From: Trueperaceae bacterium
Lineage (GTDB): Bacteria > Deinococcota > Deinococci > Deinococcales > Trueperaceae
Direction of reading: 5' to 3'
Length of the DNA: 64,000 nucleotides
NCBI GenBank assembly: GCA_965215565.1
Contig: CBDCDZ010000004.1
Location: forward strand, 2,528,001 to 2,592,000
In this document: positions 2,126 through 43,068 of the stretch, in pieces
How positions within the stretch are numbered: the first letter of the stretch is position 1
How the letters are laid out: each line of letters begins with the position of its first letter
Made by a program: the position numbers and the translations under genes
Notes under the pieces: model-generated
Database searches by the model: none
What the model was told of the DNA's origin: nothing
Seen by the model: the letters and a program-made list of their open reading frames with translations, nothing else

Positions 2126-2253
2126 ACTTTAACCTCAATAAGACCAAGTATGAGTGAGGCGGGTGAGCGCAGATATCGTCTCAGAACGTGCGTGCTAGAC
2201 ACCGCTTTGCATAGTGAGACTGGCTCAAACCAGATGAACTTAGTATAGAGTTG

Positions 2254-3192
2254 TCAAGCCCCCTTCCACCTCTGTGGGTGCTGCTGAGTGACTTGCAGCA
2301 TGAAACGAAAGAGTTCTCTTGCGAGATAGGTTTTGAGACTTCTTAGAGCAGCCCGGCGGGTCTTGCCTTGCTGCTGTTTCTTGTCGAGATAGGCTCTTGT
2401 CGGTTCGCTGTGGCGCAGTCTGACTTGGGCAATCATGTGAAAGGTGCGGTTGAGCCGACGGTTGCCGCCGATGTTGAGTTGCCTTCTCTTCTGACCACCA
2501 GAAGAGCGCTCGACAGGCGCACAACCTGAATACATGGCAAAGGCGTGTTGTGAACGAAAGCGTCGGATGTCACCTGCTTCAGCAAGTAGCGTGGCGGCGT
2601 GAACGACGCCGACGCCAAAGACCTCTAAGAGTTCAGGCATCAGTTCGTCAACGAGGGCTTTCATCGCCTGCTCGAGCGTCTTGAGTTGTTCTTTAAGCAC
2701 TGCAATAACGGCTTCGACGGCTTGGCGAGCCACCTCTAGCTCAAGGCTCGCTAAGCTCAGCTTGTGCGCTGTAAGCTGTTTAGCTAGCGCTTCTCGGGTG
2801 CGGGTCAGATGTTTGAGGTCTTCAACCGCTTGCCGAGGTGCAAACGTAGTCAGCTCAGGATTAGCCAAAGCAGCCCGAGCTACGTTTTCAGCGTCTACCT
2901 CATCACTCTTCTTGCGTCCTCTTTTGCTGCGGTACTGACTCGTCAGACTCGGACTAATGTCCACAACCTTATGGTCCTGCCCGAGCAACGCTTGACTCAA
3001 CCTCCGAGCAAAGGGGTTATTCGCCCCTTCAATAGCGCACCGCTGAACGTCATAGCGCTTTATCCAGTGCTCCAAAGTTGCCAAGCCCTCAGCCGTATTC
3101 GTAACGGTGCAGTGACCTAATACCTTGCCCTGTTTATCTAACGCTGCTGCGGTATGGCTCTGCGGATGTGGATCAACCCCTATAATGACCAT
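2254..3192 (-). CDS. IS110-family DEDD recombinase/transposase
   Basis: IIGVD, IEG and KSDEVDA RuvC-like DEDD residues; C-terminal GCAPVERSSG and GNRRL motifs; AAGGAGG RBS. Confidence 0.95.
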   Translation of the reverse strand: MVIIGVDPHPQSHTAAALDKQGKVLGHCTVTNTAEGLATLEHWIKRYDVQRCAIEGANNPFARRLSQALLGQDHKVVDISPSLTSQYRSKRGRKKSDEVDAENVARAALANPELTTFAPRQAVEDLKHLTRTREALAKQLTAHKLSLASLELEVARQAVEAVIAVLKEQLKTLEQAMKALVDELMPELLEVFGVGVVHAATLLAEAGDIRRFRSQHAFAMYSGCAPVERSSGGQKRRQLNIGGNRRLNRTFHMIAQVRLRHSEPTRAYLDKKQQQGKTRRAALRSLKTYLARELFRFMLQVTQQHPQRWKGA

Positions 3193-3199
3193 ACAACCT

Positions 3200-3350
3200 C
3201 CTTAGGTTGCTGCTCACGGTAGCTGCTTATCCGTCTATGAGGCTACTAAGCGTCTTAGTATCAGGCAAGCTCCGTGTAGCTTAGTGAGCGAGGTGTGCAG
3301 TTCATCTGTTAGCCCTAAAGCTGATACTTGCTGGGCATCACCTCGCTTCT
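3200..3350 (-). ncRNA. Putative IS110 bridge RNA (target-binding and donor-binding loops)
   Basis: GCGAGGTG/CACCTCGC stem encloses AGCAAGTATC and CAGATGA (target guides); the next domain holds ATACTAAG and ATAGACGGA (donor guides). RNA ends are approximate. Confidence 0.8.
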
Positions 3351-3413
3351 CTTAATATACGGATACCTGCTAGTAGAAGGCTCGCCCTTGAAAATAAGAT
3401 AACCTTGTGTAAC

Positions 3414-4060
3414 GTGACAAAAGCCATTATCTTTGACCTTGATCAAACGCTGATTGATAGAACGAAAACATTTCAACGTTTCCTCGAGGCACAGTATTTC
3501 CGTTTCCAGAATGACTTAAATGCCGTGTCTAGAGACCTCTTCATCTCGACAATTCAACATTGTGATAACAACGGGTATACACCGAAAAGAGAGGTTTATG
3601 CTCAGGCTTGTGCGGCGTGGGGCTCGAGCTTAGCGGCGAACTCCACGCTGACTTTGAAGAGGTCTACGGTCAAGAGCCCATCTTATTTGAAGGGGCTAAA
3701 GAGGTGCTTAGGGCGCTACAAGCACATTACAAGCTCGGTTTGATTACGAACGGACGAAGCCAAAGTCAAAACGCCAAAATCGATAACGCTGGCATCCGTG
3801 AGTTTTTCGGCTCGATCAAGATTTCAGAAGAAGAGGGCGTCAAAAAACCAAACCCTATCATTTTCGAGCGTTGTGTCAATCAGCTTGGCGTCACTTCAGA
3901 AGAAGCGGTCTATGTAGGTGACCATCCTGAGAAAGACATTATGGCGGCTCGAGCGGTAGGGCTTAAAGCGGTTTGGGTACGGAATGCTCACTACTCTAAA
4001 CCTAAAAGTGCCGATGGTGCTATCGGTCATCTTAGTGAACTTGTGGACCTCATAGTTTGA
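3414..4060 (+). pseudogene. HAD-superfamily hydrolase, frameshifted near 3610-3625
   Basis: Motif I (IIFDLDQTLID) lies in ORF 3405-3743; ITNG, KPNP and VGDHPEKDI lie in the overlapping ORF 3608-4060. Confidence 0.75.
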
Positions 4061-4090
4061 AGTAGGAGATTAGAATTGTATATGTTTAGG

Positions 4091-4966
4091 AGACCTCTTG
4101 CAAAAGTAGACATATAGCTGCAAAGTAAGGCTATGCGATACGAAGAGATTAGAGGACTAGCGCCAGAAGGGTTCAGACGTTTGACAGGCGTCAAGCCTGG
4201 TGTGTTCAAACAGATGCTCGACGTTCTAGGAGAAGCTGAACGGCAGAAGAAGAAGGCGGGACGCACAAGCAAACTCAGCTTGGAGGACAAACTGCTCTTA
4301 GCGCTGTCGTACTGGCGCGAATACAGGACGCAGTTTCATATTGCGGCGAGTTACGGACTGCACGAGTCCACAGCGAACCGGATCATCACACGGATTGAAG
4401 ACGTACTCATCGCTTCAGGCAAGTTCAGCTTACCTAAAAGGCGCGAGGTGGAAGAGATTGAGTGGACTGTCGTCTTGATTGATGTCACCGAGACGCCTAT
4501 TGAGAAGCCCAAAAAAAGGAGCGACGTTACTTTAGCGGAAAAAAGCAGCGCCACACGCTGAAGAGTCAAGTGCTGGTAGACGCAAGTGACACGAGGATTC
4601 TTTCAACAGCCCACGCCAAAGGTCCCAAGCACGACTACAAGCTGTTCAAAGAAACAGCCCCTAGGTGTAAACCTGAAGTCTGGTACGTCGCTGATAGCGG
4701 CTATCAAGGCTTAGCAACGCGTCATCCACAGACCTGCTTGCCCGTCAAAAAGCCTAAGGGCGGTGAGCTTAGTGATGAAGCCAAACAACACAACCGCGCT
4801 CTAGGACGCTTCCGCATCGCGGTAGAACATGTGATTCGTTCGCTCAAGATCTGGCGTATCCTCAAAGAAACTTACCGTAATAGGCGCAAGCGCTTCTCCT
4901 TACGCTTCAACCTCATCGCCGGGCTCATCAACGCCAACCTCGATTCATGACTTTTGCAAGAGGTCT
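4091..4966 (+). mobile_element. IS5-family (ISL2/IS702-like) insertion sequence, 876 bp
   Basis: Perfect 17-bp inverted repeats AGACCTCTTGCAAAAGT (4091-4107) and ACTTTTGCAAGAGGTCT (4950-4966); 3-bp AGG duplication at 4088-4090 and 4967-4969. Confidence 0.92.
4133..4950 (+). CDS. IS5-family DDE transposase in two frames joined by a -1 shift at the A7 run (4511-4517)
   Basis: HTH part (FRRLTG...KLSLEDKLLLALSYWREY), LIDVTETPIEKP, then the -1 frame reads YFSGKKQRHTLK...ADSGYQG...RIAVEHVI. Confidence 0.85.
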
Positions 4967-4969
4967 AGG

Positions 4970-29522: not shown

Positions 29523-29668
29523 TAGCAGGTATCAAAGGCTGTCTCACTTCGCTCGGAGCTGGTCAGAGTGCGCGAAGCCATTCCCGGAGGGAAGCTTCGT
29601 AAGCGAAGCAACACTCTCACTGTAGAAAACACTGCTCAGCACACACTTTAGGGGATGAGGTTCCGTTA
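29523..29668 (+). repeat. Divergent copy of the TAGCAGGTATC repeat family
   Basis: Starts TAGCAGGTATCA; contains CTCACTGTAGAAAACACTG, the reverse complement of a segment in the 37375 copy. Confidence 0.6.
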
Positions 29669-37374: not shown

Positions 37375-37528
37375 TAGCACTTCCAAAACATATTGAGATA
37401 GGGTGCCGCAGGTCTCAGCGAAGCTAGCGGGATTTCACCTCACAACGTGCGTGCTAATTACGAAGTTTTCACGCAGTGAAACAGTGTTTTCTACAGTGAG
37501 GGTGTTTCAGACCAGATAATACCTGCTA
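37375..37528 (-). repeat. 154-bp MITE/REP-like repeat, long form
   Basis: Differs from 43412-43565 at only 6 positions; TAGCA...TGCTA ends. Confidence 0.9.
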
Positions 37529-38821: not shown

Positions 38822-38954
38822 TAGCAGGTATCATCTGGTCAGCTACACTCTATACTTACAGGAACATCGTTTCCTAACGGAAAACTGCGTAATTAGCACG
38901 CATTCTAAGGGATGATATCTGCGAAAAGTGTAGCAATGAAACGTAGAAGCGCTA
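38822..38954 (+). repeat. TAGCAGGTATCATCTGGT repeat family copy
   Basis: Exact IS110 target at 38824-38839; GAAAACTGCGTAA-T-GCACGCA shared with the 45305 copy. Confidence 0.8.
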
Positions 38955-42937: not shown

Positions 42938-43015
42938 TAGCAAGTATCATTTGGTTTGAAACGCTCTCACGATGTAGAACACTGTGCAGCACGCACATTT
43001 GAGAATGATACTTGC
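42938..43015. repeat. Short palindromic form of the repeat family
   Basis: GCAAGTATCATT...AATGATACTTGC inverted ends. Confidence 0.8.
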
Positions 43016-43068
43016 GCTATTCCAATCAGTACTCATGTTAATTGCTATAACTAGCGCGAGGAGGCGTT

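Follow-up and report, generated by a model that had tools for sequence, protein, structure and literature searches.

The window, namely the whole stretch of 64,000 nucleotides that was analysed, very probably carries an intact, multi-copy IS110 bridge-recombinase element that occupies one site in the 5' end of a 111-bp repeat, and this single fixed site likely results from base pairing of the predicted bridge RNA with the site itself (Table 1). The genome of the window (G000; 4.49 Mb, 99.99% complete, and the source of all C4 coordinates given below) contains seven full copies of this insertion sequence (IS), which encode an identical protein, together with four left-end scars (C4:160183, 269804, 687468 and 3341776). 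All of them share the site TAGCAGGTA[TC]ATCTG, and their 11 left-end junctions agree in register and have GCAGGTATC throughout; a right-end scar (C4:695979) lies at the same repeat position and continues TCA. The IS110/repeat pairing put forward in an earlier note on this DNA thus held once the flanks of all copies were tabulated, and the closest relatives in a sister species and in a metagenome share the site, which was found for the relatives in G002 (92% amino-acid identity) and L021 (71%).

Table 1. Features of the IS110 element and of the repeat it occupies, with positions in the window.
Feature	Positions	Strand	Remarks
Whole IS	2236..3361	-	Without terminal inverted repeats; seven copies, six identical and one with a single SNP
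IS110 recombinase gene, 312 aa	2254..3192	-	DEDD RuvC-like D7/E55/D97/D100 and Tnp-domain S231
Left end, predicted bridge RNA (target loop, then donor loop)	3193..3361	-	Folding z = -3.36
Short right end	2236..2257	-	-35 box TTGACA (2252-2257, overlaps stop codon), left donor ACTAAGT, core TC (2236-2237)
-10-like box TATATT	3354..3359	-	18 bp from right-end TTGACA in predicted circle
Predicted left target guide GCAAGTATC	3323..3331	-	Matches left target 8/9, mismatch at position 4
Predicted right target guide CAGATGA	3302..3308	-	7/7 complementary to TCATCTG
Predicted left donor guide ATACTAAG	3254..3261	-	Matches donor to position 6, not position 7 or core
Predicted right donor guide ACGGA and handshake TA	3228..3234	-	TA fits target positions 6-7
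First 11 bp of MITE-like repeat (TAGCAGGTATC)	3362..3372	-	Left target, second TC core 3362-3363; at all seven full copies
Rest of MITE-like repeat	2147..2235	-	Right target ATCTG 2231-2235; 3' hairpin arm 2169-2180
5' end of empty repeat copy	38822..38839	+	Other ends: 37511-, 43548-, 45307+, 46439-, 57958+, 58925+
Empty repeat copy, GCAAGTATC subfamily	42938..43048	+	Absent at orthologous place in two sister species

Spanning 1,126 bp with one TC core, i.e., 2236-3361 instead of the 2169-3372 given in the earlier note, the element is of the IS621 type. Its recombinase matches PF01548 (E 6e-22) and PF02371 (E 1e-20) and aligns to the IS621 structure 8wt6 (E 3e-16, 63 bits); among 50 homologues, D7, E55 and D100 are invariant while D97 and S231 are nearly so. 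The ends are unequal, with a left end of 169 bp and a right end of 16 bp plus the core. The IS1111 group is marked by an RNA in a long right end and 7-17-bp sub-terminal inverted repeats; here, the right end is only 16 bp and the guides sit in the left end. The element agrees with the IS110 (IS621) group in its domains, core, scarless site, predicted two-loop left end, covarying target guides and predicted junction promoter. By analogy with IS621, the IS would leave, or be copied out, as a circle, in which the right end joined to the left end would build a TTGACA-18-TATATT promoter; joining the ends in silico indeed gives this spacing and a predicted sigma-70-type promoter across the circle junction. 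Contigs of four out of nine sequencing runs, among which X1 and X2 may represent the source sample, contained neither a circle junction nor an empty-allele joint, assembled contigs being unable to exclude either, and in contigs of another study (X7), which carry a related IS and end at 2229 and 3371, the overlap was too short for bridging. A scan of viral sequences gave 10 pattern matches, none accompanied by the transposase. Just past the IS, the window holds an HAD hydrolase gene split over two frames (3405-4060; 69% orthologue in G001) and then a three-copy DDE insertion sequence with terminal inverted repeats and two overlapping frames (4088-4968; PF13613, PF13359).

Every full copy reads TAGCAGGTA-TC-[IS]-TC-ATCTGGTTTGAG, with twelve bases per side common to all of them and unrelated DNA beyond the repeat. 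Removal of the IS leaving one TC core restores a scarless TAGCAGGTATC^ATCTGG (^ marking the junction), and the rejoined sites match the repeat model across the junction, the one in the window scoring 82.7 bits over model positions 1-100 of 111, with the last ~11 bp of this filled repeat diverged or lost. The earlier note was therefore right that deleting the IS restores a repeat, the length of about 75 bp it gave being that of the hairpin part of the 111-bp element. The exact 16-mer it listed is present at 38824(+), 43548(-), 46439(-) and 57958(+), as are the near copies at 37511, 42940, 45307 and 58925; these eight in-window matches compare with a shuffle mean of 0.29, and eight were reached in 0/100 shuffles. 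Genome-wide, 231 exact 16-mers and 412 within two mismatches were found, where a block shuffle gave 0 and 2. Set against the seven full copies, the 231 exact sites are empty, and about 2% of recognisable repeat 5' ends hold a full IS; among 340 classified 5' ends, 266 are uninterrupted, 54 have a micro-insert, 11 an IS junction and 9 are of other kinds. The multicopy target is also largely intergenic, as the earlier note had it, with 13 of the 231 exact sites within ORFs of at least 200 aa (75% of the genome) and 25 within ORFs of at least 120 aa (85% of the genome). A further IS copy at this position of the repeat (C4:3453286, within C4:3452590-3453500) is garbled, with many small deletions, and has at its flanks a repeat half of 75 bp in duplicate and a duplication of 27 bp; it is possibly an assembly artefact of a polymorphic insertion.

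The structure of the left end is consistent with a bridge RNA. Its consensus, drawn from 13 relatives, has two internal loops and compensatory changes in 24/30 pairs, a number reached in 0/500 shuffles and far above slid controls, the structure having been predicted on the same alignment; Rfam yielded no matching family on the IS end or on the repeat. As inferred from IS621, the target loop would pair with GCAGGTATC and TCATCTG and the donor loop with the junction, while the DEDD/Ser recombinase would exchange strands at TC. Besides the guides in Table 1, AC at 3300-3301, the 2 nt directly after the right target guide, fits a handshake with donor positions 6-7, following the handshake-guide rule (PMC11208158). 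Covariation of guides and flanks was assessed on 29 elements of at least about 41% identity, 26 of which were parsed into 21 distinct guide pairs; the left guide was the best-matching candidate among motif-bounded positions, and the right flank of L020 came from another contig of the same genome. Left target and left guide match at 118/147 positions over the 21 distinct pairs (shuffle mean 67, max 92), right target and right guide at 77/90 in 18 elements (shuffle mean 37, max 62) and the handshake at target position 7 in 20/21 (shuffle mean 14), comparisons that overstate the difference since the left guide is a best candidate, 3/29 elements could not be parsed and the relatives share ancestry. 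On the donor side, the right guide fits at donor position 10 in 20/21, and the left guide matches over 8 nt, consistently ending before position 7 and the core across the clade. For one relative, whose guides are different, the predicted target was counted 78 times in the genome of its own host, versus 2-6 times in four other genomes. Templated copying of guides was considered and dropped: the guide-flank matches end at the functional window, hence give no direct sign of it.

The repeat itself has a modal length of 111 bp (118 copies exactly so), and a profile search recovered 472 merged loci, against 0 in the reversed-genome control. A 13-bp stem pairs positions 3-15 with 66-78; in the GCAAGTATC subfamily its pairs are kept by compensatory changes, seen in 18 copies at each of two positions. 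Twenty-five near-identical pairs, at most one base apart and with unrelated flanks, occur among 343 copies, and 4/5 window copies compared with sister species have no counterpart at the orthologous locus of at least one of these, one of the five appearing present in G001. The exact 15-mer is found in 6/41 genomes, all of the same family as the genome of the window. Regarding the ends, the consensus displays only TAGCAG...CTGCTA within TA-rich flanks, the sister species being too diverged for reading a target duplication; in G001 and G002, synteny is lost past the gene upstream of the window site. REP/REPIN sequences are defined as 20-40-bp palindromes with a GTAG tag (PMC3733652), whereas this repeat is 111 bp long with a G before TAG in 21/143 copies. 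The repeat is not a REP but a MITE-like element: it is short and non-coding, it is present in many copies and it is mobile. It would spread by a mobiliser of its own, and the landing sites would in this way be continually renewed. No such mobiliser was found among the multi-copy elements, orphan ends and bracketed ORFs of the genome. At C4:3786234-3786551, bracketed by short palindromic repeats, a Y1_Tnp (IS200/RAYT-like) domain lies in frame inside a 1,322-aa ORF with a GNPPY motif, which we take to be a methyltransferase; located within this ORF and among unrelated repeats, the match was rejected as the mobiliser. The target was likewise discarded as the most conserved part of the repeat, its conservation of 0.83 exceeding that of the body (0.73) but not that of the 3' arm (0.92), in a set anchored on the right end. 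Short tandem arrays of the repeat 5' motif, with periods of ~20-33 bp, are seen in several genera, e.g., at C4:179848-179929, 1994338-1994433 and 2634253-2634302 and as clusters in G065 and G020.

Repeat copies are themselves frequently interrupted, with inserts in 188/309. Most of the inserts are hairpin modules of 21-25 nt that recur and are often nested, and they occupy about seven fixed positions (8-11, 22-23, 46-50, 67-69, 75-76, 88); these micro-inserts break the landing site in 54 copies and are rare away from the repeat, with window examples at 29523 and 51266. In Nostoc, the SDRs that Elhai is said to have described in 2008 are reportedly modules of 21-25 nt inserted at precise positions. 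The likeness, drawn by description only, is that of precisely placed 21-25-nt modules, here within the repeat, and the difference is the phylum; SDR5 of Nostoc is treated in PMC4390886. The literature searched held no description of this repeat or of its micro-inserts.

One base of the left target guide departs from the target, and the earlier note saw in this mismatch the imprint of a repeat variant occurring at 42940, 43007 and 51356. While GCAAGTATC does occur at all three places, the copy at 42940 has its partner arm at 43007, and 51356 marks the 3' arm of a different copy; no right target follows at 43007 or 51356, so only 42940 is a landing-site variant. It is improbable that the guide was tuned to, or copied from, the GCAAGTATC subfamily, even though its 52 copies match the left guide 9/9 and depart from the right target by one G:T wobble only. 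Landing sites with A at position 4 number 54, versus 237 with G, and despite this supply none is filled, neither at the 11 junctions here nor at three in G002 and L021, an absence from the subfamily that is itself not significant (P about 0.10 for 0/11 junctions); the only two perfect guide matches in the genome are both empty. The guide A faces a G target in 5/5 distinct guides of this register (G000, L002, L021, L116, L152), is kept in G002 where the variant is scarce (5 vs 90 sites), and AAGTATC is also carried by the relative L020, the target of which is unrelated. Of 21 relatives, 6 have a mismatch at position 4, and left-guide positions 1-5 are often mismatched across the clade. IS621 is also mismatched at position 4 (PMC11208160), and the left guide of ISPpu10 tolerates distal mismatches (bioRxiv 10.64898/2026.03.19.712850, with a numbering off by one). 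Pairing between the left guide and the donor guide within the RNA was tried as the cause of the position-4 A and does not hold in L021. The simplest and most likely reading is tolerated slack in the left guide.

Whether the seven full copies stand for seven separate insertions is another matter, since two filled copies have identical bodies. Hitch-hiking may account for part of the copies, a filled repeat having moved as a unit or the IS and the repeat body having recombined into another repeat; we hold this as a possibility of some weight, short of an even chance. The window copy and C4:3107105 have bodies identical over 77 bp where the best empty copy differs at 5-6/74 positions, identical pairs being only 2/6,903 among empty 111-bp copies, and TTTGAG follows in all seven filled copies versus 70 of 232 exact empty sites. 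Against it, the bodies of the other five filled copies differ, the right-end scar continues otherwise, and the filled C4:4136901 matches an empty sibling without a difference over the 100 bp that follow the core, the picture that insertion into a recent repeat copy would give. A strict requirement for TTTGAG after the target, also considered, is ruled out by the TCA of the right-end scar and by TTAGAG in G002. For IS110, flexible ends as well as half-match events are reported in two 2026 preprints. Hitch-hiking is compatible with guided insertion, and would lower the number of independent insertions. Guided insertion might also be assisted by the repeat hairpin, with a dual match as demonstrated for ISPpu10 (bioRxiv 10.64898/2026.03.19.712850). 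The whole target does sit in the 5' arm of the stem preserved by compensatory changes; yet guide pairing by itself suffices to explain the site, the partner arm lies at a distance of 55 bp instead of next to it, and the repeat that holds one G056 copy has another body (8.6 bits), which makes a role of the hairpin rather unlikely. Far less credible still is a repeat derived from IS110 by deletion, or moved by it, with flanks that are IS ends. The twelve shared bases per side would suit such an origin, but the core is 9-11 bp inside the repeat, the bodies vary while the IS is invariant, the empty copies are scarless, and G001 (75 sites) and G005 (13 sites) have the repeat with no close IS found in either.

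Some relatives use other sites. Close homologues were found in 8/128 family genomes. In G056 (75% aa), three full copies with guides GGTAGCATC and GACCAGA sit at CAGG(T/A)AGCATC^TGGT, 3 bp deeper in the same motif; of their rejoined sites, one scores 35.5 bits over the whole repeat model and the others 11.8 and 8.6. Scars of this second register exist in G083, G002 and G065, the last appearing to be the same genome as G041. The full element of G041/G065 (L072, 67% aa; guide GGTATCATC) lies outside the 111-bp repeat, within tandemly arrayed copies of a related motif. The two registers, 3 bp apart, differ by 7 changes in 12 non-core guide positions. Grouping the G056 and G041 recombinases as one clade is rejected (p-AU 0.00014; 10 rows, LG+G4), whereas the first-register group as a clade is borderline (p-AU 0.048, same settings), deeper branching not being settled. 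L022 and L087 sit in other repeats, and the predicted target of the G018 relative occurs once in a 330-contig assembly; as such, repeat targeting is not clade-wide. That the clade records natural re-programming of bridge RNAs, with target loops that change all at once, either rewritten from target DNA or exchanged between elements, and not by base-by-base drift, is a doubtful proposal, convergence on an abundant target explaining the second register without a new mechanism. If true, IS110 elements and the 21-25-nt micro-inserts would compete for a single motif in which the repeat tolerates no change.

Several further elements were encountered. Several of the Deinococcus relatives L074-L085 have the flank GGGTACTGAG and long similar upstream flanks, which hints at targeting of a different mobile element at its end. 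In L002 and L158, the beginning of the transposase gives way to different sequence at ATGGTCATGAAG, and the L002 IS is 78 bp longer than that of the window. A second IS110 (C4:420860-422000; 56% aa, one internal stop) has different guides, of which the left one and the handshake fit its own flank, and is followed by a transposase-like fragment. Apparently identical stretches occur in G001:C1 and in G002:C1/C3 (L108 vs L115), which hints at contigs that are shared or were mis-binned.

IS110 elements that target REPs and MITEs are already published (IS621, ISPpu9/10, IS1111 in QMITE2), and the present case adds little in terms of mechanism. It provides a compact (312 aa), intact Deinococcota bridge recombinase with a TC core, a readable predicted guide and a natural 7-nt right guide, as well as a natural series, i.e., one repeat in two registers, other repeats and a non-repeat target, for testing how guides change target. 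In the part of the Durrant supplementary files that was searched, no Truepera or Deinococcus entry was found. The closest parallel in organisation is IS621 of Escherichia coli, for which bridge RNA, handshake guides and REP targeting are described (PMC11208160, PMC11208158; PDB 8wt6). Both elements combine a DEDD and Ser recombinase, a long left end with a two-loop bridge RNA, a short right end, a dinucleotide core, a junction promoter, handshake guides, a multicopy intergenic palindrome as target and a left-guide mismatch at position 4, the bridge RNA, its guides and the promoter being predictions for the element of the window. They differ in that (i) the proteins are distant (63 bits), (ii) the core is CT there and TC here, (iii) the right guide here is naturally of 7 nt and the left donor guide ends before position 7 and the core, (iv) the mismatch is an rG:dT wobble there but rA:dC, not a wobble, here, and (v) the host here belongs to the Deinococcota and the target is a mobile repeat of 111 bp. 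ISPpu10 and ISPpu9 of Pseudomonas putida are also multi-copy IS110 elements confined to one repeat site (bioRxiv 10.64898/2026.03.19.712850; PMC12288879), and in ISPpu10 the left guide is likewise permissive while the right one is strict (bioRxiv 10.64898/2026.03.19.712850); the sites of both are short REPs with an adjacent stem-loop, in contrast to one arm of a long stem near the end of an element. In Coxiella burnetii, IS1111 lands near the 5' end of the MITE QMITE2 in 20/21 copies (PMC5896051), and is thus another IS110-family element found in a MITE. It belongs however to the IS1111 subgroup, and QMITE2 copies are conserved between strains (PMC5896051), while copies of the repeat of the window include near-identical siblings, and their places differ from one sister species to another.
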